DNA of 50,002 bases, the filler included, from Jimgerdemannia flammicorona (Eukaryota): NCBI GenBank assembly GCA_003990765.1. It is 2 parts of 2 records of this genome, joined end to end, with 100 filler letters (N's around TTAATTAATTAA, not from the genome) between each part and the next. Parts side by side here need not be neighbours in the genome. Positions count along the whole stretch, not along the records: positions 1 to 24,953 come from RBNJ01000900.1; 1 more part is not named here. The stretch is one strand, 5' to 3'. Under the pieces are notes generated by a model that made no database searches, was not told where the DNA came from, and worked only from the letters and a program-made list of their open reading frames with translations. The translations under genes and the position numbers were made by a program. Position 1 is the stretch's first letter; each line of letters starts with the position of its first letter. Below, piece after piece: positions 2,521 through 41,925 of the stretch.

Positions 2521-5516
2521 TAAATATAAACAAATTCTTATCAAATCCACCCATCTGTAAGATATTGCTCCAATCTGCCTGTACAGAACACAGAGCCACT
2601 CATTGTTACTGAGGATAAACTGGTGATCAATATAATGATTAAAATGTCTTCTACATTATATTTTGCATATAAATATAAACAAAATCTTACCAAGTCTACC
2701 CATCTGCAGGATGCTGCTACCTTTCCTGATTTGTATGTATAGAATACAGCACCACCCATTATTACTGAGAATAAACTGATGATTGATACAATGATTGAAA
2801 TATCCACCACTATTATACTTCTACAGATTACTGCTACCCCTTCTGATATTATAACCAATACATATGAACCACCTATTAGCAATAATGGTAAACTGATTGA
2901 CCTATATGATATAGCCATATCTTTAAATATTGTACAGGCTATAGAGTTACCTATCTCTCTGAATCTATATATACAGAATATAGAATCTCTATAGAATACA
3001 GAGCCATTCATAGTTACTGAGGATAAACTGATGATTGATGCTACTCTATCTGATATTATAACTAATACACATAAATCACCTATTAGCAATAATGGTAAAC
3101 TAATGATTGATACTATGATTGAACTACCAGTCATTACTATCAATCTGCATAATATAGCTATATCTTCAAATATCAAGATTAATTGGGCCAACATATCAGA
3201 AATATATAAACAGGCCACAGAGTTATATATTGTAAATAAGGATGAATGGGCAACTAATACTATAGTCAAGTATGAATGGGAAACCAATGCTATGATTGAG
3301 GATGAATATGTAACCAATGCTATAATTGAGGATAAATGGGTAACCAATACTATAGTTAATGATGAATGGGAAACCAATGCTGTAGTCAAAGGTGAATAGG
3401 AAACCAATGTTATAGTTACAGATAAATGGATAATCTATACTATGGCTGAGGTATCTACTATTATATCTCCTCCATGAAATATTACCACTCTTTCAAATGA
3501 TTGAATTCATTGATCTGACCAGCAGCAGCAAGAGGTATCAGAACCTATTATAGAGCTATTGATGGTATATCTGTGACTGATACCTACCTATAAGATGTAG
3601 CTACTCATGATCAATCTGACCATAATATCACTGAGCTGCCAATTGTCAATACAAGTAAATATGTAATTGATATCATAATTAACAAACTTTCATATCTCAT
3701 CAAAGTGCTGGTCCAGTGGCAATTAGATCCCAAAATAGTCATTGGAGAATATATGGCTGGTAGAGTTATTATATGTAATAATGAGTGGATGCTGCTCCAT
3801 GAGGCCACTAAACTAGGAGATCTCAAACTTATTACCATTTTGGTTATAGAACTCAAGGCCAATATCAATCATCAAGAGTATAATGAAATGATACTACTGT
3901 ATGTTGCAGTAGAGAACAATCACCCTGAGGCTGTAGAAATGCTCTATACTATATATGATACTGATATAGAAATTAGAGATCAGTAATATCAAACAATACT
4001 GCAACTGGCAATAGATAGAGAATACTATGAGATAATTAAAATACTCTGCAAAATATTTAGGACTGTGCAGGAAGAAATCAATTCTGCACTCATCTCAGCT
4101 ATTCAAAATAATGACCTCAATATATTTACAGTTCTGATATATAATTGTGGTATTGATCTCATTGAACATAGTAATAATATAGTACTATGACATATAGCAG
4201 CCAGTTTAAACAAAAATGATGACTTTATCTAAATATTTAGAAGTAGAGGAGTAGTATGCATATATTCCAAAACTACCTACAATACAATGGTTGAAAGAGT
4301 TCTATATTTCATAGAATGGCTGAACTGGAGATATAAACAGGATTTAATTATACATTCTGAGGCAATTATTATGAAATATGAGATTTATGAAATTATGTAC
4401 TATAATAGATACTGGACAGTACTACATGAAGCTACCCTACTGGGAGATCTCAACCTTATAGAGAATCTTATTATTGGTCTCAGGTCTAATGTCAACCTGT
4501 AGAGATATGATAAAATTACAGCACTGCATATTGCAGTGGAGCATAATTATTCTGAAGTTGTAAGAATACTCTATGCTAGGTTTGGTGCTGATATTACAAT
4601 CAGGGATTGGTATAATCAAATAGTACTATAATTGGCAATAGATAAAAGACACCACTAGATAATTTGTATGCTATATAATCTGTTTGGAGCTATACAAGAG
4701 AATATCAATTCAACACTCATATCTACTATACTAAATGATGATCACAATATATTCAGAGTCTTGGTAAATAATTGTAGTACCAACACTAGTTAATATAATA
4801 ATGATATAGTCCAATTATATATTCAAAAACATTCTGTCCTTATTGCTGAATTGCAAGAACCAGTTGTAGAGGTATCTATTGATAATGAACTTGCTATTAA
4901 TACTATAATTGAAAGACTTCTATATCTTATCAAAATACTGATCCAGTGGTTATTGGACTCCAGAATAGTCATTATGGAATATATGGCAGATCGAATAGTA
5001 ACCACAAATATTAGACACTGCTCTATAGTGCCAACATATTGGGAGATCTTAAACTCATTGAGATATTTGTTACTTATCTCAAGGCTAATATCAATCTGCA
5101 GGGATATAGTAGAATAATACCACTATATATTATAGTGGTGAAAAATCATCCAGAGGTTGTAAGAATGCTTTGTGCTAGATTCAATACTGATATTAGGATC
5201 CTAGATTGGAGGAACTAAACAGCATTACAACTGGCAGTAGATGGAGGACATCATGAGATAATTTGGATGCTCTATAATTTATTTGGAACTATATAGGAAG
5301 ATATCAACTCTACACTCATCTCTGCAATACTACACAATGACCTTGATATATTTAAGATCCTGGTGCTGGAGTGTGGTACTGATATTAATAAATAGTGTTC
5401 TATAATGGAGTACTTCTATCAATTATGACATATATTCTATTTATGAAAGAGCATAGTGACTTTTATTATATATTCCTTAAATTATCTGATAATACTATAG
5501 ATGATTATCATTTCTG
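2521..5516 (+). pseudogene. Degenerate intronless ankyrin-repeat gene with a repetitive N-terminus
   Basis: Three tandem modules (~3640, ~4290, ~4850) with ankyrin motifs (WMLLHEATKLGDLKLITIL..KANIN; TALHIAVEHNYSEVVRIL). Many in-frame stops are explained by C>T or G>A. Confidence 0.8.
3241..3450 (+). repeat. 30-bp coding tandem repeat (~7 units, DEWETNAIVK-like decapeptide)
   Basis: GATGAATGGG.AAC.AAT.CTAT.GT.AA units, visible in ORF 3031-3399. Confidence 0.85.
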
Positions 5517-12063: not shown

Positions 12064-13427
12064 ATGATACCAAGTACAAGTAAATACAAGGAGGCTCCCA
12101 AACATAAAGGAATATTTGCTATTACTGCCTGTTGATATGATATTACCCAAATATAAATGAGTATCTGCCATTACTATCTATCTACAAAATACTACTACCT
12201 CTTCTAGTAAATGTATGAAAGTATCTACATCTAAATACAAAAGAGCATCTGCTATTACTGCCTATCTACAAGATACTACCACCTCTTCTAGTGAATATAT
12301 AAAAGTACCTATACTCAAATACAAAAGAGCATCTGCTATTACTATCTATCTACAAGATACCACCACCTCTTCTAGTGAATATATGAAGGTATCTGCTACT
12401 ACTAAACACCAAAAGATACTAGCCAATACTACTCACCCACATAGTGCTGCTACTTCTTTGGGTATTATTATCAATCTGACCAATGAGCTGCAAGAAGTAT
12501 ATGAACCAGTCATAGAGCTATCTACTGTTGATGAACTAGCAGTTGATTTTATTATGAAAAGGCTCTCATATCTCATTGAAAGACTGGTCAGATGGAAATT
12601 CAACCCTAGGGTGGTCATCAGAAAATACTTGGCTGATGGAGTTGTGATCTATAATAATCATTAGACACTGCTCCATGAAGCACTTTACTAGGAGATCTCC
12701 AACTAGTTGGGATCTTTATCACTGATCTCAAGGCCAATATCAATCTGCAGAGATATGACAAAATGACACCACTACATGTTGCAGTAGAGAGTAATTATCC
12801 TGAGGTTGTGTGAATACTCTGTGCTTAATTCCATACTGATACTGAAATTCAGAATTCATTAAATAAAACAGCATTATAGCTGACAATATATAAAAGACAC
12901 CCTGAGATAATGCAAATACTCTATAATGAGGTTGGGGCTATACAAGAAGAACTTATTTGGGAATATATGTGGAGGCAGTCTCAATATATTTAAGATTATA
13001 GTGACTGAGTTTGGTATTGATGTCAATGAATGGTGGGGAGATATAACTCTATTGCATGAGGCAGCTACTTGAGGTTTATTTGTCTTTGTCGAAATACTTA
13101 TCAATTATGATACTGATGTTAATGTAAGGACACCATCAAGTGAATTCACCCCTCTACATATCATATGTGAAAATTACATAAGATGTACTAAGACAGATAA
13201 GATTGTAATTGCCAGGATCCTTATAGAGGCTGGTGCAGATGTGAATGCAAGGAATAAGTTGGGTAGAAACTGCAGTACAATCTAATAACATATATCTTAT
13301 AATATATCTCATTAATGAGTATAAGGCAGATACTAGTATCAGATTATACAATGGTCTGAAGCTATTTGATTTAGCTCAAACAAAAGTAATGGCAAATCTA
13401 TTTCCAGAGATTGCCAGTGACAGATAG
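12064..13427 (+). pseudogene. Second degenerate ankyrin-repeat gene (paralog of 2521-5516)
   Basis: 84-bp N-terminal repeats (KYKRASAITAYLQDTTTSSSEY..). Same pre-ankyrin cap (ELAVDFIMKRLSYLIERLVRWKFNPRVVI). Ankyrin motifs TLLHEA, TPLHVAVE, TPLHI, EAGADVNA. Confidence 0.8.
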
Positions 13428-14120: not shown

Positions 14121-15634
14121 TATAATAGTGACCCCAGAATGATGACATCAGCACAGGAGATAGCCTTTCCTTGCAAGCCACCAGATCGAAGCACAAGAAG
14201 ATCATATGGCATACAAGATGAGCAATGATGACCAACTGTGAGTTATTGTGACCATAGTATGGATATCTTGAAGAATATAAAAGAAGGATCAAGGAACCAC
14301 AGTAGCAGCAACCAACAAGACCCACCAATCCCAAAATAGCTCAAAGACTTACCACAAATGAAATGCCTGCTGCTTGCCAAACCTCAAGATCAAGGAACCA
14401 CCAAGGCACCTCAGTCAAAGAAAGGATGTTCTAAGAGATCAGAAGAGCCATAAGGACCTACTCAAGAAGGACTCCTAGTATCAACCTGGGTACTGGTAAC
14501 TCTTATCATTATATTCTCTACCACTATGAAATGGAAACAAGGATCACTATTGCTATCAAATACCTCCAAATGTGGCAGGAGTATGAAATAGAAAACCTTC
14601 TCTGCTGGGAGTTCCCACAGGCCAGCCCTCAAGAGCTATAAGATACTACTTCCATAGATATATGCAAAATAAGAACAGCTAAGAAGATCCATCAGATCTT
14701 TAGGTATGTACTATAGTTGATCCCCAACTTGGAGTATGTTAGAGTCTCAGACTTCAGAGACCTGTCAGCCCACCATATCAATGCACTAGAAGCCAGAGTG
14801 GCTACAGAAGCCCAGTCCACTATCACTCTCAATAGTGATGAAGTAGAAGACTTCTGGCATCCCATCCTCCAGGACAACCCAGACTAATTTCTGCAAGGAT
14901 TGATCTCAGTATTCTAAGGCCAAGCATCCAGGTTAGACCTCTCTAAGATCCCACATTTGTCCCCTATTTCATAGAAGAGAACCTCATAGACTGGAGAGCT
15001 CCAGACCTCCTTGTTCCTGCCACCACTGAACATGATGACATTATTGGCAATGACATCATCTCATGTGATCTATGTGATGATGATGAATTCACAGACCTCA
15101 TCTCCTTTGAAGACATCCTGATCTCTAATGAGGATGAAGCTCCTATAGTCTTGAACATTCTGCTCTAAGTCTCTTGGTGATACTGAATTATGCCAGCACC
15201 AGTATTCTGATATGATACTGAATTATTCCAGCACTATTTTCCTGTACCACCAAAATTATACCAGCATCCTGAACCTATGCAACCATCAGTGCCAACACTG
15301 GAACTTAGCAGTTTTCTCTGTTCTGGTATTTTATTTTAGTTATTGGAATTTATATTTAGCTTTATATCTTAGCAATCATTGACTTATATTTTGTATAAAT
15401 ACCCCTCTTATTTCCTCTGAAATAAAGTCAGTCTACTTAGTGCAATACACACAATTCCTTGAAAGCAATCTAAAGAGATAACAAGATAGTTTAAAGATAA
15501 GAAGTTTGAGGACTATAAGATCTTGGGAAGGTACTCCAATAAGAACTTGCTTATAACAAACTTGAGTTAGTCTAAGAGATACACCTTGAAGAGAATCTGA
15601 TATATTTGGAGAACTCAGTGACCATTACATGACA
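14121..15634 (+). repeat. 5' LTR (1514 bp)
   Basis: TATAATAGTG (=TGTAACAGTG)...CATGACA; colinear with 21343-22857. Confidence 0.95.
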
Positions 15635-15754
15635 ACTTTGTGCCCATTGGCTAGTGATTCAAGACGAATCCCTCACTTTCAAGCTGAAAAACAAACAACT
15701 ACCACAACAACTACTCTGACTACAAGAGTCACCCCTGCAAGAATTCAAGATAAG

Positions 15755-17082
15755 ATGGAAATACATCTCTCCACATTCTATAAATATACTACTGAAGAGT
15801 CAATCCTGACCTTCATTGAAGACTTTGAACAATTTGCCACCATATGAGCCCTTGATATGAATGCACAATTGGCTCTTCTATCTGTCAGCCTCAGAGGACC
15901 TGTCAGAGACAAGTTCAATACAGCCACTATTGCTGATAATGGTGCAGCCAAACTTGCCAACATGAAGGCCTTCTTCAGAACAATATACTATACTGAAGAG
16001 ATCAAGCAAGCTCTCAAGGATCAACTCAATACTATCTGCCAGGGACTCAGTGAAGATCCCAACTCATTCTATACCCAAATATGTCACCAGATTATCTTGG
16101 CTGGCTATGATAATGCCCTCAAGGAACAAATAGCAGATTCAACCTTTCTCAAAGGAGTTCACCCTAAAATTGCCCTAGCAATCTGGTCTATCCTAGCTGC
16201 ACTGACCCTTGATCAGAAAGTGGTCCTTGTACAGAGATATTGGACTGCCAGACACTCTGCCAAACACTCAATAGAGAAAATAACTGGCATCAAGATGGAG
16301 CCATCAAAGTCAACTAGTATCATACCCGCTACAGTTGTAAACAGACAACCATCCTCACCTATCCCCAAGACAACCCAGTGGAAGAACTCACTAAGTAGTT
16401 TGCCAAGATGACTGCACACCTTAGTGATGTTGTTAGAGAAGTCTGAAGCACCAACAGGAGACCAGTGCAGAGATTTGCAGCTGCTACAGAAGAACATAAT
16501 ATCACATGCTTCAGATGTAAAGAAGAAGGCCACTATACAAAGAGTTGCATGACTGAAACAAGACACAAAGCTCAACCAAGCAATGCTAGCAGAACCAGAG
16601 AACAAACCAATACAGTAGTCATCGAGGAGATTGGTGATACTGATGATGAAGAATACTACAGAGAGCTTAAATTCTACTCTACTACTGAAGGTACCAGAAC
16701 TCAGTCCAAGCCTTATGACAAGAAGAGCAACAGAAAGCCAGTTGGAAGATCAAAGAAGACTCCAGCTATCACTATTCAAAGTAAGACCCAACCTGAGGAG
16801 ATTGATCAAGATATGGAGTTAGATGAAGCTGCCCAACAAATCATTGAAGGTACTACTCTAGTCTTGGAAGAAAGCAAAAGCAAGAAGGAACAGAAGCTGT
16901 GTAAGACCAAGATCCACCAGTATGATAACTACAAGAACTTCAAGGAACAGAAGGTCAATGCTACTTTTAGACAGCTAGCTGAAGTCCCTGCCTTCAGACA
17001 GCAGTTGAGAGTAAGACTTATAACTACTACCAAGAATCAAGAGTATAAGATTGTAGAAGCTCAATGTATAGAAAGAATCTGA
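15755..17082 (+). pseudogene. gag: Gypsy gag with CCHC zinc knuckle
   Basis: LSTFY..EESILTFIEDFE; ICQGLSEDPNSFY..I; FLKGV; CFRCKEEGHYTKSC at ~16507; one frameshift near 16400. Confidence 0.88.
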
Positions 17083-17149
17083 AAACTCAGATGAAGAATC
17101 CAAAAACTTAGGTGAAGAATCCAAAGACCAGCACAAGACATCAGCCTAT

Positions 17150-17500
17150 ACTCCATATCAGATCAAAGATTGTATCTTTGATGCCATCATTGATACCAGT
17201 GTTGGAGGATGCCTCATGAGCAAGAAAGCAATTGACTGCTTAGGCTAGAATATTGAAGAGTCTACCAAGATGGTCAATGTTACAGTAGATAGTACATGAG
17301 CTACCCCTCTTGGCAAAATCCAAGAGGTCCCCATCAAGATAGGAGGAGCTACCATTCCAGTAGATGTGATTGTTACAAGTGCCACTAACTATAACATCCT
17401 CACTGGCAACCAATGGCTTCACAAGGCCAAGACCATCATTGACCTCAATACCCAGAAGATGCAGATCAACTATAGAGGAAGAAAGGTATGAGTTTCTATC
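17150..17500 (+). pseudogene. Gypsy aspartic protease
   Basis: FDAIIDTSVGG (DTG mutated to DTS) and ILTGNQWL. Confidence 0.85.
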
Positions 17501-17856
17501 AATGTTCATAAAGAAGTCCTACCAGACATAGAGAAGGAGATGAAGAGGATACAGAAGTCTTCATACACTTGGTAAATAAGAACAAGAACAAGAACAAGAC
17601 ACTCAAGCTCACAGATGAGCAGTGGTATAACAAGATCATCAATGGCTATGCCCCTCAAGAAAGATGCCCCCATGGTACTAGGATATACTGCTCTGAACAC
17701 CTGAATGACTGCTGGTCCTGTATTAGTGAAGTCAGGAAAATCTGCCAACAGAAGCATGAGTAAGAAGCCACTAAAGCAAAAAAGAAAGCCAAAGAAGATG
17801 ACCAGCCTCCAGAGCTTCAAGCTGACAGTGATGATGAGGAGGAATAAGAATCAGAC

Positions 17857-18270
17857 ATCACCCTCAAGGTCAAGAAGTTTTACCCCAAAGCCAAGATCCC
17901 AGAATACAAGACTGAAGGAGTCATAGGAATGGACCTTGCCAGCATTCAAGATGCTACCCTTGAACCACAGACCACCACCCTACTTGGCACTGGAATTGGA
18001 GTCAAGCTGCCAGAGAACTATGCCAGAATTATCAAGACCAGGAGCAGTCTGGCCAAAAGTGAAATCTCAGTTGAAGGAGGAGTAATTAACCCTGATTATA
18101 CTGGCAAGATCTTCCTCATAGTTAAGAATCACAACCCCACCACCCCATCTGAAGTCAAGAAGCATGATAGGATTGGCCAGATGCTGATCCATGAAATCAA
18201 GAAGCCTAAGATCACTGAAGCCATTAAACTCATCAAGATCAAGAGAGGAGAACAAGGCTTTGAATCTACT
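17857..18270 (+). pseudogene. dut: Trimeric dUTPase domain in pol, between PR and RT
   Basis: Motifs GMDL, RSSLA, GGVINPDYTG, RIGQM and RGEQGFEST. Confidence 0.92.
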
Positions 18271-18419
18271 AGAAGAGGAGCTTACACTGCTACCAAGATT
18301 ACTGAACTTGAGCACAAGAAAGATAGAGACCAGAATAAGCACATATATACCATTGGAGAAAACTTTCCCCTGGAAGAACAACTTCTCAAGATCCTGTACC
18401 AGAATGAAGGAGTACTTGC

Positions 18420-21033
18420 TACAGACTTCAGGGATATCCATAATCAAGAACCCAAGTATTATCATGAAGTTTACACTGGCAATATCAAGCCCATCTACCA
18501 AAAAGCCAGACCCATACCACCTGTCTACAGAGAATGGCTGCAAGCAGAACTCAAGGAAATGAAAGAAGCCAGAATCATCAAGCAAGCTATCAGTCCCTGG
18601 GCTTCACCTATTGTCCTCACCCTAAAGAAAGAAAGCAAGCCTGGAGAGTTTGTGCCAAGACTCTGTATTGACTACAGGAAGCTCAATGCCATCACTAAGA
18701 AGGATAGGCAGCTCTTGCCAAATATTTAAGAAATCCTTACTACTCTAGAAAGTGAAGCCAAATACTACACCACCTTGGATCTGTTCTCAGGCTTCCATCA
18801 GATTGGTCTCACTCAAGATGCCAGTGAGAAATCAGCCTTCATCACACCTGATGCCACCTATATCTACCTGCAAATACCATTTGGAATATACAATGCCCCA
18901 GCAAGCTTTCAGCAAATGATGAACAGAGTCTTCAGCAATGAGATTGGAAAATAGCTCTTTGTCTATGTTGACAATATGATCATCTTTAGCAATACTGTAT
19001 GAGAACATATCAATTACATACAGCTAGCCCTCAAGAAGCTCAAGGAGCATGGCCTCTACATCAAGCCCAATAAATGTAAGTTTGCAGCTCAGGAAATTGC
19101 CTACCTAGGATACCTCATCAACCAGATCAGAATCTACACAGATCCCATGAAGATTGAGGCTGTTGCAGTCTATCCAAGACCCAGAACAACTACAGAAGTC
19201 CATGCCTTCCTTGGACTGGCCAGCTACTACAGAAGATTTATCAAAGAATACTCTAACATTGCAGTACCTATCTATGAGCTACTGAAGAAGGAGACAAAAT
19301 TTGAATAGACCAAGGAATGCTAAGAAACCTTTAATGAACTCAAGACCAGGTTGACCCAAGCACTTATCCTCAGAAGACTAGATTGGAACCTAGAGTTCAT
19401 CCTGCAGATAGATGCAAATACTATAGGACTTGGAGCAGTCCTAGCTCAGAAGAAAGATGGATATGAATATGTCATCTCCTATACAAGCTGAGGTACCCAT
19501 GGAGCAGAACAGAATTACGAGTCATGCAAGCTCAAATGCTTAGCAGTAGTATGGGCTGTAGACAAGTTCCACTACTACCTAGCTAGGAAACACTTCACCA
19601 TTCAAACAGACCATTCTGCTCTTGCCTGACTATTCCACACTCTGAACTCCAAAGGAATATATGTCAGATAGATCTACAGGCTGCAAGAGTATGACTGTAC
19701 TGTCAAGCACTACTCAGAAAGAACTAATACCAATACTGATGCACTCTCAAGGACACCCCAAAACACCCCCATCAAGACTATTCAACATGAATAAGGAGTT
19801 ATACTAAGGATTAATCAGCTACCTTGGGCAGTAAAAGATGCTCAACCACCTTGAACCCTGGACAATCACTATCATCAACCAGACTTGGAAACAGTTTCAA
19901 CTAGACAATACTACACTCAGAAAAGGAGAAAAACTTGTAATATCTGAATATAAGAAGTATCATGTAATGGAGGAAGTACATGAACAAGGACACCTAGGAG
20001 GAACCAACATATATGACAAGGCAAAAAGAACCATATGGTGGTATAAGATGGAAGAAGACCTGTGCCAATTTGTCAAAGAGTGTAACAAGTGCCAAAAACA
20101 GAAACAAGATCAGCAAGACCAGATATCCGGGTCATCAAGAATTGAGCCTATCCTCTTCCACTATATTGCAATGGATATCATTGGGCTACTATCAGTAACA
20201 ATATCAGGAAACTACTATATTATAGTTATTGTAGACCTCTTTACTAAATGGATAGAAGCAGGAGCATTACAAGAAGCCAATGCCCTCTCTATAGCTGACT
20301 TCCTATACTGAGAAATTATCTGCTACTACAAGACACCAAAGCAATTCACTACAGACCATGGCACAGAATTTGTTAATGGATTCCATGAGATAATGTATCA
20401 GAAATACAAGATTCAGCACATCAAGACCACTGCATACCACTCTCAAGGAAATGGATAGACAGAAAGAATCAACAAGACTCTCAAGAACATTCTGGTGAAG
20501 ATCTCAGACACATATGAGAATTGGGATAACTACCTCCCAACTGCCCTCTCTGTCCTATGAGACATATGGTCACAGAGCACACACTTTACCCCAAGAGAAC
20601 TGCTCTTCAGAGAAGAAGATTCTGATGGAACCTCAGCTACAAATCTAGACCTAACTTGGAGATGGGTTAATGCAAAAATCCAGAGACTACACCAAATCAG
20701 GAAGAAGGCTGAAGATTACATCATCAAGTCACAAACGCTGATAAGAAAGAATATAGAAAAGAATCACAAGACCCTAGAACCCATCCAAATTGGAGAAAAG
20801 GTCTTACTGTATCAAAATATGGTAGAGGCCTCATGGTCACAAAAACTGGAGCCCAAATGGAAAGGACCCTTCTATATGCAAGATAAAAGGGAACTACCTT
20901 CTGGCTTAGAAAAATCTCAGAGACCATACTGCCTACCATGATATACAAAAACAGACTCAAGAAGTACCATGAACCTATACAAGAGAAGCAAAACATAATG
21001 ACTGCCCATGAGGTTCTAGTCTACGAATCATAA
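18420..21033 (+). pseudogene. pol: Gypsy RT, RNase H and integrase
   Basis: SPWASPIV, LCIDYRKLN, LDLFSGFHQI, PFGIYNAPASFQ, VYVDNMIIFS; ILQIDAN..GLGAVL, TDHSAL, NTNTDALSR; HEQGHLG..CNKCQ, MDIIG, VDLFTKW, TDHGTEF, GNG*TERIN, KWKGPF. Stop at 21031-21033. Confidence 0.95.
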
Positions 21034-21044
21034 CAGTATGTCCC

Positions 21045-22391
21045 ATGACCAGCAGGCTATCTGTCTGGACCATTCTCTAAGAGATACAGTACCAGCAACT
21101 ACTCATCCATGAGACTTTTGAAGCTAGAGGAGTTTGAACCATCAACTGATTGATCAAGATCAGAATCAGGCCCTTGCTCTATATGAAGGGAGTGACCCTT
21201 CACTATCACACCAAAATATATAGAGAAGCAGCCTATAAACACTCTTTTCGACCCCCTTGTCAGAGGTTATGGGATTAGCAAATTTTTCAGGACTAGACTA
21301 ATGAATAAAGATGCTCAAGAAGATTCTTATTCAGGAGGAAGATGTAACAGTGACCCCAGAATAATGACATCAGCACAGGAGACAGCCTTTTCTTGCAAGC
21401 CACCAGATCAGAGTATAAGAAGATCATATGGCATATAAGATGAGCAATGATGACCAACTGTAAGTCATTGTAACCACAGTATGGGTATCTTGAGGAATAT
21501 AAAAAAAGAATCAAGGAATTGCAGTAGCAGCAACCAACAAGACCTATCAATCCCAAAATAGCTTAAAGACTTACTACAAATGAAATGCCTACTGCTTGCC
21601 AAACCTCAAGATCAAGGAACTACCAAGGCACCTCAGTCGAAGAAAGGATGTTCCAAGACATCAGAAGAACTATGAGGACCCACTCAAGAAGGACTCCTAG
21701 TGTTAACCTGGGTACTGGTAATTCTTATCATTATATTCTCTATCACCATGAAATGGAAACAAGGATCACTATTGCTACCAAATACCTCTAAATGTGGCAG
21801 GAGTATGAAATAGGAAACCTCCTCTGCTGGGAGTTCCCACAGGCCAGCCCTCAAGAGCTATAAGATACCACTCCCATAGATATATGCAAAACAAGGACAG
21901 CTAAGAAGATCCATCAGATCTTCAGGCATGCACTATGGTCAATCCCCAACTTGGAGTATATTAGAGTCTCAGACTTCAGAGACCTGTCAGCCTGCCATAT
22001 CAATATACTAGAAGCCAGGGTGGCTACAGAAGCCCAGTTTACTATCACCCTCAATAGTGATGAAGTAGAAGACTTCTGGCATCTCATCCTCCAGGACAAC
22101 CCAGACCAATTCCTGCAAGGATTGATCTCAGTATTCCAAGGCCCAAGCATCCAGGTTAGACCTCTTCAAGACCCCACATTTGTCCCCTATTTTGTGGAAG
22201 AGAACCTCATAAACTGGAGAGCTCCAGATCTCCTTATTCCTGCTGCTGCTAAATGTGATGATGTCATCAGCAATGATGTCATCCCATGTGACCTATGCAA
22301 TGATGACAAATTCATAGACCTTATCTCCTTCAAAGACATCCTGACCTCTAATGAGGATGAAGCCTCTATGGTCTTGAACATTCTGCTCTAA
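21045..22391 (+). pseudogene. Accessory ORF3 (~448 codons) in the env position, extending into the 3' LTR; unknown function
   Basis: Single frame from ATG 21045 to TAA 22391, which includes ORFs 21585 and 21951. Several stops are CAA in another LTR copy. Indels between LTR copies mostly preserve frame. Confidence 0.65.
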
Positions 22392-22857
22392 GTCTCTTGG
22401 TGATACTGAATTATACCAGCACTGGTATTCTGATGTGACACTGAATTATTCCAGCACTATTTTCCTATACCACCAAAATTATACCAGCATCCTGAACCTG
22501 TGCAACCATTAGTGCTGATATTAGAACTTAGCAGTTTTCCCTGTCCTGGTATTTTATTTTAGTTATTGGAATTTATATTTAGCTTTATATCTTAGCAACC
22601 ATTGAATTATATTTTGTATAAATACCCCTCTTATTTCCTCTGAAATAAAGTCAGTCTACTCAGTGCAATATACATAATTCCTTGCAAGCAATCTAAAGAG
22701 ATAACAAGACAGTTTAAAGATAAGAAGTTTGAGGACTATAAGATCTTGGGAAGGTACTCTAATAAGAACTTACTTATAACAAACTTGAGTTAGTCTAAGA
22801 GATATACCTTGAAGAGAATCTGATGTATTTGGAGGACTCAGTGATCACTATGTGACA
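21343..22857 (+). repeat. 3' LTR (1515 bp)
   Basis: TGTAACAGTG...TATGTGACA, immediately after the PPT. Confidence 0.95.
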
Positions 22858-23899
22858 ATAGTTAGGATAACTATATTATTTTGTTGGATTAAACCTATTA
22901 CAAATATACTATTATAAGATTACTAAGATTTTGATATATATATATGAAATTATTAAAATTCTTAAATATAATTTAAATAATTAATTGTTTTATGTTTTGT
23001 ACTATTATATTAAAAATAGATGAACCATTTTGTATAAGAGTGATTCAGTCACCAAGATCCTTTAGAGAATCCCTCCTTACATATATATCAATTTATTAAG
23101 CTAATAAAAGCTAGTGCCAAAAAGTTTAGTCAATATCATATAGTTAGACTGTTTTATTTAATATCAAAATGTACTCAGGATTACTGTAAAAAGAATGAAA
23201 TTATACTGAGTGATAAAGCCAAACACACATATATATTTATAGATTCAATGTTACTATATGTAATATCTATCACTCCAGAGTTCTGATGACTATACTGATT
23301 TGGTTATTGGCTGTTAATATAAGTGCTGCTGTCAGTAGATTGGAAACTGACATAGGTGCAAGATATTTCTAAAGCAAGTGTGGTGGAAGACAAGAAATAA
23401 GAAACTGGCATTATATATTTTGTGAATAAAGTCATATATCCAGATAGGTATAACTGCTTTTCAATGTCTAGCTTAGACTAACTTCCTTGAGACATGATGT
23501 TCCAATAAATTAAATGTAAAACTAAGGTGAGACTTTATATTTTAGCAATAGAATTTATGATTAATATATTTTAGAATAGCAAAGAATACTATTTATTTAA
23601 CTGCCTTAACCTGAGGACCCTTTTTGATCATAGAGATCACACCAGCTTATATATTATTCTTGAGTGGACTTCATTAAAATACTCCTTAGAGAGCTTATAA
23701 GAACAAGTACTCATCCACTGAAAGTGGTGTGAGGAAATATTAGCCTTCTTTTTAAAATATATTGAGCATCATATGTACTAGATAGCTAGATATTGTTGCT
23801 TTTGTTATTGCTTTTGCCATTACTCTTGCCATTGCTTCTACTTAATTCAATGTTACTACCCAACATGAGTGATCTCTTTAAGTATCAAAAAATCCTCTT

Positions 23900-24539
23900 A
23901 ATGGCACTCTAATGTGAATTATTATAGTAGGAGGAGTATTGCACCATCTTATTCATAGAATATGATATATGTATCAGGTCTTATTCCTAATATGAGATAT
24001 ATGAGAGAGCCAACTACTTGCTGATAGGGAATATTGTTGGTACTGTTCTTAGTGAGCATATTGTTGTCATCCTTAGGAGTAGTATCAGGCTTCCTTAATT
24101 TCATAGAAGTATTTATAAGAGTACTGATGGGCTTGCAATCACTCATATTAAATTATTCCAAAATGGCTTTGGCATATATTTCTTGTGAGAGGTATATGGT
24201 ATATGTATTCCTGTCATATATAATGGATATCCCCAAAAGGAAGGACACATCACCCATATTAGTCATCTTGAATTCTCAGTATAGAGTTTCCTTTACTCTG
24301 TTAAGCCTATTCTTATTGGCTATGATGATTATATCATCAATCCATATGCCAATAAATACTATGCCATTATCATAATATACAATTGTCTACTTTACAATAC
24401 TTGAATCCATTTAAGGAGATATTTATCAATTCTTTTATTCTATAGGCATACTGCTTGCTTAATACTATATAGTCTTTTATATAGTCTATATATAAGCTTG
24501 CTGTTCTGGTTGTCATATAGTTTATATCCTTATAGTCAG
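23900..24539 (-). mobile_element. Ty1/Copia RT fragment, highly degenerate
   Basis: KRLYSIKQA..*NKRID (=LYGLKQA), FIGIWIDDIII, KMTNMGDVSFLLGI, PYQQVVGSLIYLILGIRPD. Confidence 0.85.
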
Positions 24540-24953
24540 TGATGGCATCTCTCTCTAACTCTCCAACATCCCCCAGAGAACCCAGTCCGACCACCATATC
24601 ATCGGCGAAGGCCCCCACCTTCCAGTTCACCCCTAGAATGTCCAAACCTCCAATCCTATGCCGAATCCTGTCCAGTAGCGGCTCCAGGGAAAGGGCATAC
24701 AATATGGGTGACAAGGGGTCCCCTTGTGGCACCCCGCGGCCCAGGGGAAAGTTCACCCCCCGGTGGCCATTGATGACCAATGCCACCTGACTGTCCTCCA
24801 ATAGGCTGATCAACGAACCTCGGAATCCTGGGGGGACTCCAACCCGCTTCAGCACTCCTTCCAGCCATATTCTCTGCACTCTATCATAAGCCTTCTCCTG
24901 GTCTAGAAATACCAATCTGCCATCCACCCCTGTAGCCCGGGCACCTTCAATCA
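24540..24953 (-). mobile_element. L1-clade LINE RT fragment (young, CpG-retaining), cut by the assembly gap
   Basis: FLDQEKAYDRV, GVPQGDPLSPILYALSLEPLL, AFADDMVV. Same family as 48110-48510. Confidence 0.92.
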
Positions 24954-25053
24954 NNNNNNNNNNNNNNNNNNNNNNNNNNNNNNNNNNNNNNNNNNNNTTA
25001 ATTAATTAANNNNNNNNNNNNNNNNNNNNNNNNNNNNNNNNNNNNNNNNNNNN
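24954..25053. other. Assembly gap / artificial contig linker
   Basis: 100 positions of N with a central TTAATTAATTAA (24998-25009), which gives stops in all frames. Adjacency across it is not supported. Confidence 0.97.
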
Positions 25054-30562: not shown

Positions 30563-31002
30563 TGCAGGTCGAAGGATGGAACACGCGCATGCTATGCTCT
30601 TCGTGGTCATGTGCTATGTCATGTGACCTGTCATCGCACGTTTTACAATAAAGGCAACTATGACATCGTCATGCCAGGTTTTCTCCCGAGTGCCCGAGTT
30701 CCACTGATCCTGATCTATGGCTATGTTGACAGCGGTCTGGACTTCATGAACACCGCTATGCGCAGTTAGATCAAACAGAGAGATTATCGCGTCAGGATAT
30801 TCTTCCAGTTCGTCGAAGAACTGCTGTCTCCGAAAAGCGACTGTAGAAGAGTAATTCTGATGCTATTTTGGCACTCCATAAAAGGCAAATGCAGGAACAC
30901 AACCCGTCGATTGACAGTCCCGCATGAGTAATCGCGCTGAACCTTCTGCTTTATAAATAACTTCCTTCCGTTCGTCGCCGATTTCCTCTGCAACGACAAA
31001 AA

Positions 31003-33503
31003 ATGAAGCTCCCAACCCTGATACTAGCCGGCGTCCTGCTGTCCTCCACTGTCGCGGCTGAGGTGAGTTCCGGGTGGAGCTCGCCGCACGTCAAACGCCA
31101 GTTTATCCCGAGCGTGACCGATAACCATCCCGTGTTAGAATTTGCGAGGACCGGTAAACTTGTGCAGAACGGTAGGGTCAATTGGTTTGATTTGATGCGT
31201 GCGTGTCTGTATTTTACGGCATTTCTCATCTTGTCGATCCATTTTTCGTACGCCCAGGTCGCACCGGTGTTTCAGCCATGCATGCCGTCCTATTGAAGTG
31301 CGTATGCTGTGCTGGTCGTTAAATGTCATCGAATACATTGACACATTGACCTCACATTTGTATCGTCGACGTTCCGCAGCGATCGCAAGATTATGGTCAT
31401 CGACAAAGGTTGGTTTCGTTTGTGAGTCTATCTTCCGTTCGTTGTCCCACAATAGGTTATTGTTATTCTGGCATCAATAAATGTAACCAAAAAAAATCTA
31501 GCTCAATGGAACGAGGCACGCTTCGATTCGGGTCAGTACGCTTGGTCCACCGAGTACGATTACATCGACAACAATTACAGGGCGCTACACATGGATACCA
31601 ACAGCTTTTGTTCCGGTGGCGGGTTTCTGGGGAACGGTACGCTGGTTAGCACGGGCGGTGGCGAACGAAGGGTGCGTATATTTTTAGAAAATTTTCATCT
31701 TGGCCATTCAAAACCAACGCTACGGTAAGCGGCTGTGCAGTATATCATACCGTCTGATTTTTCCAACTCCCAACCAATTTCGCGTCCTAACCAGGGCCGT
31801 AATTATAAAGCTCTTGAAGGCTGGCACTCGATTCGCATGTTCAAACCCTGCACTAACCAGACGTGCGAGTGGAGCGAGTTTTCGACCCACCAAATGGGTG
31901 TGAATCGGTGGTATCCGACTGCCGAGCAATTGCCAGATGTGAGTGTTATGGAAGATAATGGTAAAACCGATCATTGTTGCGAATGAGATTTTATTTACTA
32001 CGATTATGCCATTCGCTTGGTTCTTGACATCACAGGGTAGCCTATTTATCATTGGCGGTAGTAAGAAGGGTGCCGCGGTGAATCGCGAAGAAATCAACAC
32101 TCCGTCATACGAGTATGTAGATTTTTAGTGTTTTTTATTTTTATTTTATTGTGATAAGATAATGACAATGTACCGTCATAATATTACCAGGTTCTGGCCA
32201 ACGCGTGGCCCACCCGTCCACATGCAATTCCTTGTGGATACCATGCCATACAACCTGTAAGTTCCATTGCTCGTGCATGCGATAACGAAGGTTAGACGTT
32301 TGGATAACATAAATAATATGATTCCCCATACCAATAGCTACCCCTTCGTCTACCTTCTTCCCTCTGGCCACCTTTGGATCTTCGCCTCTCGTTCCTCCAT
32401 CATCTTCGACTATGAAAAGAATGAGATTGTCCGTCGTCTGCCGGATATTCCTGGTAACGTGCGCAGTTATCCACTCACCGGGACTGCCGTTATGCTCCCC
32501 CTTATGCCCGAGAATAATTATGAGGTGGAGGTGCTAGTGTGTGGTGGAGCTGAGGGGATGCGTAGAAAGTCCCGTGCGGATGATACGTGCGGAAGAATTA
32601 ATCTGAGCAAGGAGGACACGAAGTGGGAGATGGTGAGTCCAATTTATTGCATATGTTTAACGAGCTTGAATGGTTGGTGTTAGGATAGTCTGTGACGACG
32701 GATACGCTTTTCTTTCCTTCTCCGATCCGAATAATAGGACACATTTGTTTTTCCTCGCTTGATGCCGGACGGGGTTCTTCTCGCTGACGGCAAGATCCTC
32801 TTCGTCAACGGTTGCCAACGCGGTTTCGCTGGTTACAATGGCCGCAATAACGATCCTCAGTTTACGCCCGTCATATATGATCCTGTGAAGCCGCTGGGCC
32901 AGCGATGGATCACCGGCCTCGTATCTTCAACCATTGCCAGGATGTATCATTCGGTCGCTTTGTTGATCCCGGTAGGTTTTTATGTCATCTTGGTGGTTTG
33001 CAAAGAGACAGGTCAGTTGGTTATGCATAACTGACCAACGTTGGATTGCTTCCACCATTTATGACATCCAGGACGGCACAGTTTGGATCGCCGGCTCCGG
33101 CTGCATCGACCCCCCGAACGCTACCGCGACCCCCTACCCAACCGAATTCCGCGTCGAGTACTTCTCCCCGCCCTACCTCTTCTCCACCCCGCGTCCCCTC
33201 ATATCCAACGTTCCTACCTCACTCTACCCCGCCCAACGATTCGCCATCAACATCAACCTACAGTCCGACTCGACCCCAGACGTCAAGGCCGCCCTCATCA
33301 ACCCGGGATTCTCCACCCATTCGCTACATATGAGCCAGCGCTACGTCGGTCTCGAGAGTAGCCTTTCAGAAGACGGGTTGAACCTCGAAGTCGTCGCGCC
33401 GCCTAATAATAATATATTCCCCCCGGGACCCGCGTGGTTCTATGTTACCAACAATGGCGTGCCAGCGCAGGGGGTGCAGGTTATGGTGAAGACCTTGACG
33501 TGA
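31003..33503 (+). CDS. Secreted copper radical oxidase, glyoxal-oxidase type (CAZy AA5_1); multi-exon
   Basis: Signal peptide MKLPTLILAGVLLSSTVAA; TGVSAMH; catalytic set FCSGG (Cys), RWYPT (Tyr), RMYHS (Tyr/His) and STHS (His); C-terminal PPNNNIFPPGP Ig-like domain. Confidence 0.92.
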
Positions 33504-36501: not shown

Positions 36502-38275
36502 GTTGATGGAGGGTGATGCACGTCGTGGTAGGCCTGGAGAGCGACAAGGCAGTAGTGGCACTGTCGGTTGAAGAGGGCATGCCAGATACAGATTGTTAGA
36601 CAAGAGAATTCGTTAAGTGGTAGTGAAAATATAAAGATAGAATACTTATGCGCTTATTGAGCGTTGACACGTGATCTCGCGTGCGAGAGGTGTCACGTTC
36701 ATTGGGGTATTTTGACAAAGCGCGCGGGACCGTGATATCAGAGATCGAAGAAATAGCCTTCTCTTAGTCACCAGTCATCCCTGGACAATAGGCTGTGCTC
36801 ACGTAAGCGTATGATTGCAAATCTTCAAATAAACGTGGTAACTGTTATTTTTGGAGCCGTTCACATTGGTGAAAAGCGAATTCTTATATTTCTATTTTAT
36901 CTGTCTATTTTGCGTTTCACTTAGTCAAATTGCTAACATTTAAGGATTTCGCATCCATTCCCAGATTTGCGCAGAGTGATTGGGAAGGATGGGTGGTCCA
37001 ATGCTTACACATGCGTCACAATTAATTCTACAATGCATGACTATCGTCTGAGGTAGTAAATACAGATCGAATCGTAGATTGCTGGATCTGCTTTGATTGA
37101 TCAGGTACCTGGAGATTTACAAAATTACAAATGGCTCGAGTCGAACTCAGAGAATGTAGTAGACATCACTGCCTTAAATTCCAACTGGTACCCCTAAAAC
37201 ACTAACACCATAAGAACTGCTCCATTCAGCAAAGCTCGGAGGAAGATCTTCCGAGCATATTGTTTGTTATTATATAAATCGCCGCTCACCACTCACCACC
37301 GCTCGCCGCTCGCCGCCAGCCCCCCAGCGGCCGCCAGTCGCTCGCTGCTCACTGCCAGCCCGTTAGCCAGCCAAGATGGAGGTGGGTATAGTGAGGACAC
37401 CTTTAACGAACATGCACAGATAGTGAGCTTGATTCTATCATACAACTACACAACATTCACAAATTTCTGACATACCAGAAATATGCAGTTCGGTCAAGAT
37501 AGTGTTTTGCTTGAGAGACTCTGCTAGGACGCATGTCACCTCGCCATAGATGTTATTTCCCTAAAGTGAATAGGGAATTAGTGATGACAAGCGTGATTCC
37601 GTTATGCAGCAGCATACAATGCTTCACATAATTCTGACATACCGTTACTTGCCAGCCTGCAGATGAAGATGATAAACCTGCCTAAGATAAATGCAGTTCG
37701 TAGACGACTCATCGATGTACATTTCAATGTGCTAATCTCAGTCTCTTCAACACAGGAGGTTTCCGTAGTGCGACGGTGCTGGCTTTCGGCACTCTGGCGG
37801 TCTTTCTCCGTCGTTGTCGGTGGGCGTTTGTCATCAGCGGTTGCATTGTAGTGCGCTTACCAATTGAAGGGGAGTAGCGAAAATCAATACAACCATCACA
37901 GGCAAGAACACGAATGACAACCTGACAAGATAATACCGTTCCTTCCAGCGTAAACGTGCATCTCTTTTCCTTTGCTCACCTTTTTCACTCACAATCACGA
38001 CCCAAACCGTGGGTTGGCGTATGACTATGACAGACGTTCCTTTTCACTCACAATCACGACCCTAACTGTAAGACACGCGTTATTAATGTTTATAAATACA
38101 CATAAGCATGTAAACAAACGCCACCGACCTAGAATAGACCGGTTTCGCTGGCTCATCAGTTGGCCTAAAAGCAACCAAGACCAGGCAGCATGGCACATTC
38201 GCGTCGGCATCTCGCGCTGGTCAAAAAAATAAAATAAAAAATAAAAAATAAAAATAGTAAGCAAGCAGATTCGAA

Positions 38276-38276
<1 letters not shown>

Positions 38277-38364
<88 letters not shown>
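38277..38364. repeat. 88-nt poly(A) homopolymer
   Basis: Uninterrupted A run. Confidence 0.95.
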
Positions 38365-38366
<2 letters not shown>

Positions 38367-39672
38367 AAACAGGGTAAGCAGAAAAAACTGAGAGCAATAC
38401 TTATCATAAATAGGCAGCTTCTTAGGCAGCTTCTTTCCCCACCCGTCAAAACTACAAAGGCTAAGCGCACTCCAATGGAGAGGGGCCCCATCTTATCGTC
38501 CTGGCCATGGACGCAACCTACCCAGATCAAACATTTTATGGCATACACGATGTGCTCTCACAAAGTGTCATACACATGGTGTACCTACACGCGGGTCATA
38601 CCCACGCCAGCGTCGCCCATGCGGGTCAAATAGTAGGTTGCCCTTTGTAGCGGTATGACAGAGAAGAGAAACCCTATGGTAAATGAATGGGATGGGGATT
38701 TTGTTTTGGGGTTGCCAGTGATGACGTAGATTTCACACGTCATAATTGTTCACAGTGCAAAACATAGCAATATCATTATATTATATGAGTATTTCTACAG
38801 CCAATAATAATAATAATAATAATAATAATCTCTCCTACATAAGTTTGTTTTATTCTGATTCTAGATAGTATATTGTATTTCTCTCTCAAATAGTTCTAGT
38901 TTCTTTAAGAGAAAATAACTATATTTTAGTATTTTCTAATAAAGTTCAAATAGCTCAAAGAGATACTTGGGTTCAAGAAGTTCCCATGAGTTTTTTGAGA
39001 GAAGATATTTATATAAAGACAATTTTATTAAAATTATAGAATATATTTTATATATTATTAATAAATAATATAAATTGATCTAAAAAAAAGATATAATAAA
39101 GTTATATCTATCAAGTTATTATCTTAATACTTTTATATTATTTTTAATTTTTTAATTTTTAATTTTTTTTTAAAAATATTAAGTATCTTATTTTAGCTAG
39201 TTATAAAAACTTATAAAATATTATAAACTTTTTTAATTATTTTTAGACTAAACTTATCTTAATATTTTTAAATTTTTTTTTTTTTAAAAAAAATATTTAC
39301 TATAAAAAGTTATAAGCTTTACTTAATAGCTATAGTAAAAAAAAACCCTCCTCTTTTAAAAATATATACTATAATATATATTATATTAAAATAAAAAATA
39401 TAAATATAAATATAAGTAACTTTAGTAATAAGAACTCAAAGTATAAGTATTCTAATAATAAAAAATATAATTCTTCTTACTATTTAATACTCTAAACAGA
39501 TGTAATTTATCCAGATTACTTGAAATCTTTAGTAATATTATTCTTTCTTTCTTTATCTTTAGTAATATTATTCTCTCTGATACTCTAATATATCTTTTTA
39601 TTTCTCTTACTATATTATGAATAAATAAATAGCAGCTCTTAATCATATATTGATCTACTTATCTTTTTACCT

Positions 39673-41925
39673 AATGATTATCAAAAGAGAGAATATTCAA
39701 GATGAGAATGTACTCTCTACTGATAATGTTAAATTCTTTCTCATATAGATAGAATATAAGCTGCTCATTAAGAGCTAAAGTAGTAATAGTAATAGTAATA
39801 GTAATAGTAATGAGAATAAAGAAGAATTCTAGTAATAACTTATAGAGACCCTTTGGATCTCAGAATTTATAAACTTTATAGCTATATATAGCAGTCTTTT
39901 TAGAGCAGCTAATAGTAAATATAGATTGTCTTTTCACTACTACATATATTTAAATTCCCACAGTATAACTAAGTTTATTTTATACTATTTCTCTTTTTCT
40001 CAGAGTCTACAGATCTGCTGACTTTATTCATAACATCTGATCAAGATGAAGAAAGACTAGAGAATATTATAAGACATATCTTTAGTGACTAAATTATTAA
40101 GTCAATATATTATATAGTAGAGATCTCAAAAAGATCAGAAGTAAGTCTTTGTAAGCAATCTTGTACAACTCATATATATGTAACTTATCTATAAGCAACT
40201 CATTCTCATACTCTTTTTTCTGAATATTCACTCTATATTTTATTTAACTTTATTTTTATATGTTCTCCCCTAAAAACTCCTACATAATACTCACACATAA
40301 TCCATCTACATATTTAACTTAGCACACTACTCAGATTAAGGCTCAGTTCTACTGCAGAGGAGAATTCAAAGTTATCTAAGTTTAACTATATCTAGTATCT
40401 GATCAAATAGAGAAGTTTGAGAGCAAGTTATTCAGTATGAGTAATATTAGTATTACCATTAAGACTTGGGGATCTATATTTAAATTAGAGCTAATCATTC
40501 TCAATTAAGGAGCTCATTGGTCTACTAGAGTATTCAATGATGAAGAGAACTACATCATTATTAATAAATATAAAGAGGTTGTTATAGTGATAGTAAGGAA
40601 TCTCTACAGTAATAAGCTTTGTCACTATTAGTGCTCCCAAATGAATTGAATCAATTTGAATCAAATTGAATTGAGGGTCATTCAAATCGAATTGAATTGG
40701 GGATTTTTCAATTTTAATTGAGGGTCCAATTCGAAACCTATTTTTAGAAATGTAATAACTCAATGAATATATGTCCAAATTCAATGATCGTTAGCCTGTT
40801 AGATTCCCCTATATAAGAGGAATCTAACAAGCTAAAGATCATTGAATTTGGATATATATTTGTCAAGTTATTTAATTTCTAAAAATAGAGTTTGAATCAG
40901 ACCTCAAATTGAATTGGACCTCAATTTGAATTGATTTGAATCAAATTGGACCTCAATTCGATTTGAAGTTTTCAAATTGAATTGAATTTGAGTTCAATTC
41001 AATTCAATTCAATTCATTGAGAGTACTAGTTACTATATTAATAAGATTTGCAAGAATTATATCAAATACTAGGTAGTGGGAAAGAGAGTGTGTAGAAAGC
41101 AGAGAGGGGGAGTTTGGACAGGAATTGGGTATACTGCAACATTGGCAAAGGGTGGGTTCTCTGAAGTTTTTTTCACATTTATCTCCTTTTTTTCAAAATT
41201 TTCTTTATTAATCTATTCTTGTTAAATTTTCAGAGATATATAGGATTCTATACTCTTATTAGAACTTTAGAAGTACTATCAAAGAACAAGCTACATATAA
41301 GTATGATATGGCCTGTGCAGTGATGGCAGTTATGATCTAGAGTTCTTTGAGTAGATTGCTAGACTGAACAGCAGACCAGCTTAGTAGTACTCTTAGTACT
41401 GCTGTATATATATTCTTAGCATAATTTAATATATCATATAAGGTGAGGAGTTTGACTTTTTTTCTGGTATAGCTCAAGGGTTTCTGTCTCTGTATGTGAA
41501 AAGGAAGAATTTAACTAGATGCTGTCTATTTTGGTAGAGTTTCAAGCTGAGACTCCTAGAGCTAGACAAAGAGCAGATATCCTCTAGTACTATCTAGCAA
41601 TATGAGGTCCTGGGTCAAGAGTTCACCAACCATATACTTATATCACATTAGGGTATATTGGGTACAACATTTCTCTACCTATATATATAGATAATAATAT
41701 TACTCTAGTAATGTTTTATATTCTAGAAAGGAAGGACCTAACTTGAGAAGATAGTAGTAGCATCTAGTATAATCTCACTTATGGTTTTGGGGTCCCATTT
41801 ATGGTCAATATGGCTATTCTATTCTAACCACATAACTTTTATAATACCATCACTTTTAAGGAGAGCTTAGATACTATAGTCATTATACTCATAACAGATA
41901 ATAGGCTCATTAAGGCCTAAGACTG
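39673..41925 (+). pseudogene. Second copy of the TET/JBP-like cargo gene
   Basis: Colinear with 5913-7910; reads ..ITLGYIGYNISLPIYIDNN.. at 41642-41698 and ..PHNFYNTITFKES.. Confidence 0.5.
40629..41028. mobile_element. hAT-type fold-back MITE (400 bp)
   Basis: TAGTGCTCCCAAATGAATTG...CAATTCATTGAGAGTACTA; 8-bp TSD GTCACTAT/GTTACTAT; empty site at ~6990 in the other copy; near-palindromic interior. Confidence 0.92.

Follow-up and report, generated by a model that had tools for sequence, protein, structure and literature searches.

A probable accessory gene within the U3 region of a Ty3/gypsy-like long terminal repeat in Jimgerdemannia flammicorona

The long terminal repeats (LTRs) of retrotransposons are usually treated as noncoding promoter and terminator blocks, and protein genes located in U3 are textbook curiosities known from a few complex retroviruses. 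In mouse mammary tumor virus (MMTV), sag (the “LTR ORF,” for open reading frame) encodes a superantigen from within the LTR U3 of this betaretrovirus, and the product, Sag, is a type II membrane glycoprotein. The nef genes of human and simian immunodeficiency viruses (HIV/SIV) and the bel/bet genes of foamy viruses overlap the 3′ LTR, starting upstream of it. Foamy viruses also use a second promoter to express Tas, a transactivator whose activation region is acidic. Here, we consider a stretch of 50,002 nt (filler included; hereafter, the window) from the fungus Jimgerdemannia flammicorona (GenBank assembly GCA_003990765.1), which contains a decayed Ty3/gypsy-like LTR retrotransposon with 1.5-kb LTRs and a dUTPase in pol. 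Our preferred reading, which we consider probable, is that the LTR of this element carries a 268-codon accessory gene wholly in U3 (positions 21585–22391 in the 3′ LTR) and that this gene is expressed from a promoter of its own.

The term “LTR ORF” is used in MMTV papers (e.g., PMC2118998). In the open-access and bioRxiv literature, we found no U3 gene of an LTR retrotransposon, and the matches to “LTR ORF” were to MMTV. The layout in the window is of the sag type rather than the nef type, because the gene starts inside the LTR and not upstream of it. As with sag, the ORF lies entirely in U3 of a long (1.3–1.5 kb) LTR, is duplicated with the LTR, and would be included at the 3′ end of genomic RNA. 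The two differ in that there is no sequence relation (0 Pfam families), the window protein is without a membrane anchor, the element is an env-less Ty3/gypsy retrotransposon of a fungal host, and the window gene probably has a U3-internal promoter. The likeness to nef and bel is that of a 3′-end accessory gene sharing sequence with U3; the window gene differs in starting 242 nt inside the LTR and has no sequence or fold similarity to them. Of the two analogies drawn in an earlier, sequence-only reading of this DNA, that to MMTV sag (a gene wholly inside U3) stands and that to HIV nef (a start upstream of the LTR) does not. Tas is used below as a working analogy in guessing at the function of the U3 protein.

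The backbone of the element (gag with a CCHC motif, protease, dUTPase, reverse transcriptase, RNase H, and integrase) is like that of fungal Ty3/gypsy elements with a dUTPase, for which a position between protease and reverse transcriptase has been described (PosPlaTy3-5; PMC2864245). A figure legend in that paper lists an “add. ORF” of unknown function for fungal elements, and its passages on the dUTPase elements place no ORF inside an LTR (PMC2864245).

Limits and relatives of the U3 gene

The U3 gene of the 3′ LTR runs from ATG 21585 to TAA 22389–22391 (268 codons plus the stop, from MPTACQTS to MVLNILL), on the plus strand, as do all features of the element given below. It starts 242 nt past the LTR start and stops 226 nt before the main TATA. 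We place its limits here because of the coverage of homologs, a Met-Pro start shared with them, and stops upstream of the gene in a related locus. Because the gene is wholly inside U3, each LTR carries one copy of it.

Homologs were sought with the 449-residue translation of a longer frame that begins at ATG 21045, read through its stops. With phmmer, five matches at E ≤ 0.001 were found among 1.84 billion representatives, the best being 247 aa at 80% identity (E 4e-110). All five fall in query residues 185–448, and none (0/5) touches residues 1–184. A word-indexed search with the 268-residue query returned five proteins, including P0008, which is intact at 271 aa and matches at 71% identity across 100% of the query. 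Its ends correspond to those of the window protein (MPAAR… vs. MPTAC… at the start, LNFLL vs. LNILL at the end). A profile search enlarged the family to 12 proteins, and the related sequences number 14 in all. The intact relatives are 271, 291, 325, and 342 aa long, with E-values down to 1e-116, and all relatives come from metagenome contigs. In a search of metagenome contigs we recovered one locus only, L001, which encodes an intact 291-codon family member and is the sole relative read as DNA; a search of viral contigs returned none.

In a 14-row alignment of the family, all six rows that reach the N-terminus share the same aligned Met-Pro start. These rows cover four sub-lineages at 29%–73% identity to P0008. 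The remaining eight rows are pieces from contigs of 567–1625 bp that start at an internal Met. At L001, in-frame stops occur 18 and 26 codons ahead of the ATG, and there is no plus-strand ORF of at least 50 aa within the 375 nt upstream of the ATG. We found no longer or fused homolog of 476–2000 aa among 2424 candidates, although this is weak evidence. Overall, the gene is real, and its protein family is new, small, and orphan, with its other members coming from metagenome contigs only.

The sequence-only reading had proposed instead that the frame from ATG 21045 is a third, nef-like ORF of 449 codons in the env position that continues across the purine tract and occupies U3, with all 14 of its stops explained as later C>T damage. 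Many of its particulars hold. The ATG at 21045 is present shortly after the pol stop (TAA 21031–21033), the peptides that were printed lie in that frame, the 3′ LTR is indeed about 1.5 kb (1516 bp, 21343–22858), and the frame ends at 22391, 1049 nt inside the LTR (∼1050 nt had been stated). Stops at 21564 and 21789 of the 3′ LTR read CAA in the 5′ LTR, as had been noted for stops of this kind, and position 21564 is C in nearly all public contigs that cover the site. Moreover, one transition could in principle undo every stop.

However, there is no single open frame from 21045. Twelve of the 14 internal stops lie in codons 1–180 and two in codons 181–448, a difference in density within the same copy (12/180 vs. 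2/268) that is significant (Fisher p=0.0005). The upstream count is no fewer on the whole than in the other two frames: counted from the pol stop to the LTR plus from the LTR start to 21585, there are 6+6 stops in the proposed frame and 4+4 and 7+7 in the others. Upstream of 21585, the frame is thus no more open than the other two, and nothing marks it as coding. Codon 101 is a TAA (21345–21347) formed by bases 3–5 of the LTR terminus TGTAAC; it belongs to the TGT…ACA terminal inverted repeat and is found in all three LTR copies. Five of the six upstream stops within the 3′ LTR are common to the 5′ LTR (five of seven distinct positions are shared across the pair). Because both LTRs of one insertion are copied from a single template, these shared stops are most simply older than the insertion. 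The continuity expected between 21045 and 21585 therefore fails in the window copies.

The homologs point the same way. None extends into residues 1–184, and those that reach the N-terminus begin at the Met-Pro aligned with ATG 21585, a start 242 nt inside the window LTR rather than in the env position ahead of the polypurine tract; L001 has stops just upstream of its own ATG. The upstream start across the boundary between tract and LTR that characterizes nef and bel is likewise not seen, given the TAA of the LTR terminus, the 12 stops, and the start at 21585. The frame from 21045 is close to refuted by its stops, the homolog coverage, and the Met-Pro start, and we regard it as very improbable. 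In our assessment, a frame in the env position that spans the purine tract is an artefact of reading through stops, and 21045–21584 lies outside the gene, comprising the spacer 3′ of pol and the purine tract, followed by the LTR terminus and the region upstream of the U3 gene. The sequence-only reading was right that the protein is not a classical env: it opens with polar and basic residues, lacks the hydrophobic stretches of a retroviral or errantiviral env, and is encoded downstream of the polypurine tract.

Coding constraint and decay

L001 is only weakly mutated (CpG observed/expected 0.50), and its frame has no stops in 291 codons, compared with 6–22 in the other five frames. Over 260 aligned codons, identity between the window gene and L001 is 0.49, 0.65, and 0.39 at codon positions 1, 2, and 3, respectively. 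We used identity by codon position in place of dN/dS because synonymous sites are saturated in this comparison. As judged from the alignment, the order 2>1>3 is a coding signature.

Within the window, constraint was measured by transversions, since hypermutation (see below) does not produce them. Between the third LTR copy and the 3′ LTR, there are 5/522 transversions in the gene versus 14/426 in the downstream LTR (p=0.017), and between the third copy and the 5′ LTR, 5/521 versus 16/426 (p=0.006). Where the third copy and the 3′ LTR differ in length, the indels inside the gene are of 48 and 12 nt, and those farther downstream are of 1, 4, 8, 1, and 1 nt. The frame-preserving deletions previously noted in the acidic tail of the third copy were thus confirmed as two. 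Two further tail variants occur in public contigs, one with 151 letters replacing 112 and one with 69 skipped, and both changes are multiples of three. Indels of random length, as would be expected if the region were not coding, are therefore not what the tail of the U3 gene displays; these four tail indels (48, 12, +39, and −69 nt) are multiples of three. Taken together, these comparisons indicate that the U3 gene family has been under coding constraint. An alternative is that there is no gene, and that 175 open codons arose by chance in a long LTR. Stops are indeed present in all window copies, but chance offers no account of intact relatives of 271–342 aa, of the codon-position pattern, or of the in-frame indels. 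We consider this idea refuted by the homologs and the codon-position pattern, with practically no probability left to it.

It should be noted that this part of the window is heavily mutated. The LTR pair differs by 125 transitions versus 3 transversions, and changes polarised by the third LTR copy comprise 49 C>T or G>A versus 19 in the reverse direction, mostly CpA>TpA. CpG observed/expected is 0.00–0.20 in the repeat-rich 1–24 kb and 40–50 kb, versus 0.76–1.19 over 24–40 kb. This pattern is a hypermutation confined to repeats, either like repeat-induced point mutation (RIP) or driven by methylation. Because of such C>T/G>A changes, stops derived from CAA, CAG, or TGG are expected in any dead coding sequence here, and the argument that every stop was once a sense codon therefore proves nothing by itself.

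The decay of the three gene copies can be read against this background. The 3′ LTR gene has two internal stops (TAA 21789–21791 and 21861–21863), where intact relatives have Gln or Trp. The 5′ LTR copy (14363–15168) has six stops at Gln/Trp positions and a 1-nt frame-shifting deletion opposite 22142. The part of the gene retained in the third copy (417–938, codons 76–268) has two stops at Gln positions in addition to the in-frame 48- and 12-nt deletions. Thus, for 10/10 stops in the three window copies, P0008 and P0002 have Gln or Trp at the corresponding position. Only one of seven distinct stop positions in the U3 gene is shared across the LTR pair, the opposite of the pattern upstream. From these comparisons, the 3′ LTR copy of the gene is broken only by C>T hits that turn Gln and Trp codons into TAA.

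Signals in U3, expression, and possible function

A TATA-like box, TATAAAAA, lies at 21498–21505, 87 nt ahead of the ATG, and is a candidate promoter for the gene. The 5′ LTR has TATAAAAG at this place, and L001 has TATAAAAG 80 nt ahead of its ATG. Just 5′ of the ATG, a block AAAGACTTAC(T/C)ACAAA (21565–21580) is conserved with L001 at the DNA level; the 16 nt preceding the ATG (AAAGACTTACYACAAA) are kept between lineages with only ∼40% protein identity. A TGACCCC block near the LTR start is also kept at the DNA level with L001. More generally, the DNA upstream of the L001 gene resembles the 5′ end of the LTR, and for this reason the gene and the LTR appear to have been long associated.

Between the gene stop and the main TATA, three AATTATNCCAGCA repeats occur at ∼35-nt spacing (22409–22489) and may act as an enhancer. 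They are present in all three LTR copies (also at 15186–15266 and 955–1039), giving nine exact matches versus 0.52 expected. L001 carries a similar sequence, ACTGAATAATAACCTGCCA, 3′ of its gene. The sequence TATAAATA at 22617–22624 is the putative main LTR promoter, and an AATAAA at 22644–22649 is the candidate poly(A) signal. From this arrangement, we infer that the U3 gene would be transcribed from its own TATA promoter at ∼21498, in the 5′ part of U3, into an mRNA of ∼1.1 kb ending at the LTR AATAAA (22644). On this model, every LTR, even a solo one, would be a gene complete in itself.

The main rival to expression from an internal promoter keeps the same gene limits but invokes a spliced subgenomic RNA from the main promoter of the 5′ LTR, as for MMTV sag and HIV nef. 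This is the known solution in retroviruses, and the genomic RNA must in any case include the 3′ U3 and hence the ORF. An AG also lies at 21561–21562, shortly before the ATG. However, no donor of the GTAAGT or GTATGT type was seen in the leader (15636–15857), 0/9 joints in public contigs connect the leader to the gene (weak evidence, as these are contigs only), and the conserved spacing of TATA-like box and ATG in two lineages agrees with an own promoter. We therefore rate splicing as rather unlikely. In contigs of one small public run, nearly all cover falls on the LTR and almost none on the internal part of the element, but we draw no conclusion from this, as the run may be DNA and contigs show neither the level, the start, nor the strand of a transcript.

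It could also be argued that the gene is a passenger, a captured host or foreign gene that is copied with the LTR and plays no role in the life cycle of the element. LTR retrotransposons do capture extra ORFs (PMC5408684), and the protein is without a known family or function. What makes this account quite unlikely, in our view, is that lineages only ∼40% identical have in common the start, the upstream block, and constraint on the coding sequence. In addition, the L001 upstream DNA resembles the LTR 5′ end, and protein searches found no free-standing cellular homolog.

Several points weigh against the reading of a U3 gene with its own promoter. The stop at 21861 is common to all three window copies, and therefore the lineage may have been broken before insertion. 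The contigs of the other relatives are short (567–4848 bp), and these relatives may lie outside LTRs. L001 alone supplies the DNA-level comparison of the upstream region, and TATA-like words are common in AT-rich DNA. What we propose for the own promoter, for polyadenylation at the LTR signal, and for function is deduced from sequence. As for the protein, the terminal LNxLL is limited to a close subfamily (6/9 proteins checked; it is lacking in L001, P0005, and P0012), the predicted structure is of low confidence, and neither a fold nor a family points to function.

The sequence-only reading inferred a soluble regulator with a basic helical core and an acidic tail. What is upheld is that U3 once coded for a soluble protein that opens with a basic segment, has a helical core including an AKKIHQ(I/V)F motif, and ends in an acidic tail. 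Residues 1–45 form the basic segment in the window copy and three of the four intact relatives (pI 11.3–12.0, the window copy being 11.5; net charge +4 to +8), whereas in P0005 this segment is close to neutral (pI 7.8, +1). Next comes an acidic core for which helices are predicted, with conserved W(H/Q)(E/D)YEI, AKK(I/V)HQ(I/V)F.H, and L(Q/N)DN.DQ.LQ.L...F.GP.I blocks. It is followed by a tail of marked acidity (net charge −8 to −26), with DLIxF in eight of nine proteins checked. The absence of a membrane anchor, also proposed earlier, was borne out: the maximum Kyte-Doolittle mean over 19 residues is 0.59–1.07 in 6/6 proteins, under the usual 1.6, so no 19-residue hydrophobic stretch exists in them.

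Database comparisons added little. Pfam gave 0 families for P0001 and none for the host-independent frames, and a search with 14 family members at E ≤ 1 gave three rows at chance level (ATG5_HBR, Importin_rep, and DUF3537). A sequence-profile search of the PDB gave 0 matches at E ≤ 10. AlphaFold2 models reached a predicted local distance difference test score (pLDDT) of 46.1 with nine alignment rows and a mean pLDDT of 52.6 with 14 rows (predicted template-modeling score, pTM, 0.49). The lead on the fold that was hoped for from Foldseek did not materialize: with this weak model, there was no match in the PDB at E ≤ 0.001, and no fold known for DNA binding emerged. Among 48,161 chains compared by VIA-align, the highest Z was 4.0, with none reaching 5, and the ESM Atlas returned nothing usable (best feature score 0.83, with an own-model pLDDT of 0.35 and a template-modeling score of at most 0.33). 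Because the model is too weak (pLDDT 52.6), a new fold cannot be claimed.

Given the charge pattern, we tentatively suggest that the protein could be a nuclear regulator of the element's own transcription, a possibility that we do not rate as the likelier outcome. In such a scheme, the Arg/Lys-rich first 45 residues (pI 11–12) would serve nuclear entry or nucleic-acid binding, and specificity would reside in the helical core. The tail, acidic and dotted with hydrophobic residues (DLIxF, LNxLL), would act as an activation or docking region, possibly via the AATTATNCCAGCA repeats. Other roles, such as an anti-silencing factor or a particle-associated accessory protein, are possibilities. More speculatively, and in our opinion doubtfully, the LTR as a complete gene might yield a trans-acting product that returns to the LTR (e.g., to the AATTATNCCAGCA repeats) and switches on genomic transcription. 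This would be a feedback circuit like those of Tas and Tax that arose independently in a gypsy element without env, in an early-diverging soil fungus, and in which solo LTRs dispersed over the genome remain as sources of the regulator.

If a fungal gypsy element does carry a conserved U3 gene, probably with its own promoter, then accessory regulation is not limited to retroviruses, and solo LTRs can be protein-coding loci that annotation pipelines mask. In that case, an orphan family with intact members in soil metagenomes would also gain a genomic context in which its function can be tested.

The element and its surroundings

Membership in Ty3/gypsy is indicated by paired long direct terminal repeats with TG…CA ends, the order protease, reverse transcriptase, RNase H, and integrase, and a CCHC gag. 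The 5′ LTR (14121–15635, 1515 bp) is 91% identical to the 3′ LTR (21343–22858, 1516 bp), from which it is separated by a single 1-nt indel in the alignment of the two. The 3′ LTR has the ends TGT…ACA(A), closing with …GACAA, and opens with TG immediately 3′ of the polypurine tract AGGAGGAAGA (21333–21342), which adjoins the LTR and was read directly in the sequence. Its boundaries are corroborated by public contigs, which switch to unrelated sequence exactly at 21343, and by one contig that connects 22858 to the post-LTR leader. We found no clean target-site duplication at the element flanks and could assign no primer-binding site 3′ of the first LTR; the window contains no tRNA gene for comparison.

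Decayed gag (CCHC), protease, dUTPase, reverse transcriptase, RNase H, and integrase occupy 15857–21033. The gag region holds the CCHC knuckle CFRCKEEGHYTKSC, and on read-through frames the Pfam order is Asp_protease/RVP_2 (weak), dUTPase, RVT_1, RT_RNaseH, Integrase_H2C2, and rve, after which the pol frame terminates at the TAA given above. The dUTPase is placed between protease and reverse transcriptase (region 17848–18726). The integrase frame differs from that of reverse transcriptase and RNase H and has its own ATG at 19838 (MLNHLEPW…, 19838–20311). From the pol stop, a spacer extends to the purine tract (21034–21332) and corresponds to the first 96 codons of the frame from 21045, with six stops; no homolog of it was found, and no reading frame in it is favoured.

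The third LTR copy (417–1414) is solo or 5′-truncated, with homology beginning at 417. It has an apparent TGTAAC start at ∼385, followed by family homology from codon 76 of the U3 gene, and is without ∼450 nt of 5′ U3 (the promoter and the first 75 codons). The DNA upstream of it (1–384) is C-rich and retains CpG.

Other repeats also occur in the window. Copies of a ∼600-bp repeat (family D1, four copies) lie at 2544–5301 and 12161–12950, where there are also repetitive Ser/Thr/Leu/Val-rich ORFs with no Pfam match. A reverse-transcriptase-like ORF on the minus strand (24373–25053) is broken by masked 44-N runs at 24954–24997 and 25010–25053. Fragments of another retroelement, with a weak Retrotrans_gag match, an RVT_1 match, and no copy of the U3 gene, occur at 44644–45012 and 48303–48695. 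The CpG-normal region includes, at 31000–33500, a glyoxal-oxidase-like gene, probably with introns, as its Glyoxal_oxid_N and GO-like E-set domains are in separate ORFs. Finally, a long A/T homopolymer-like tract (38238–38630) gives rise to poly-Lys and poly-Phe ORFs, and GC content is 17.5% over the 1 kb at 39001–40000.

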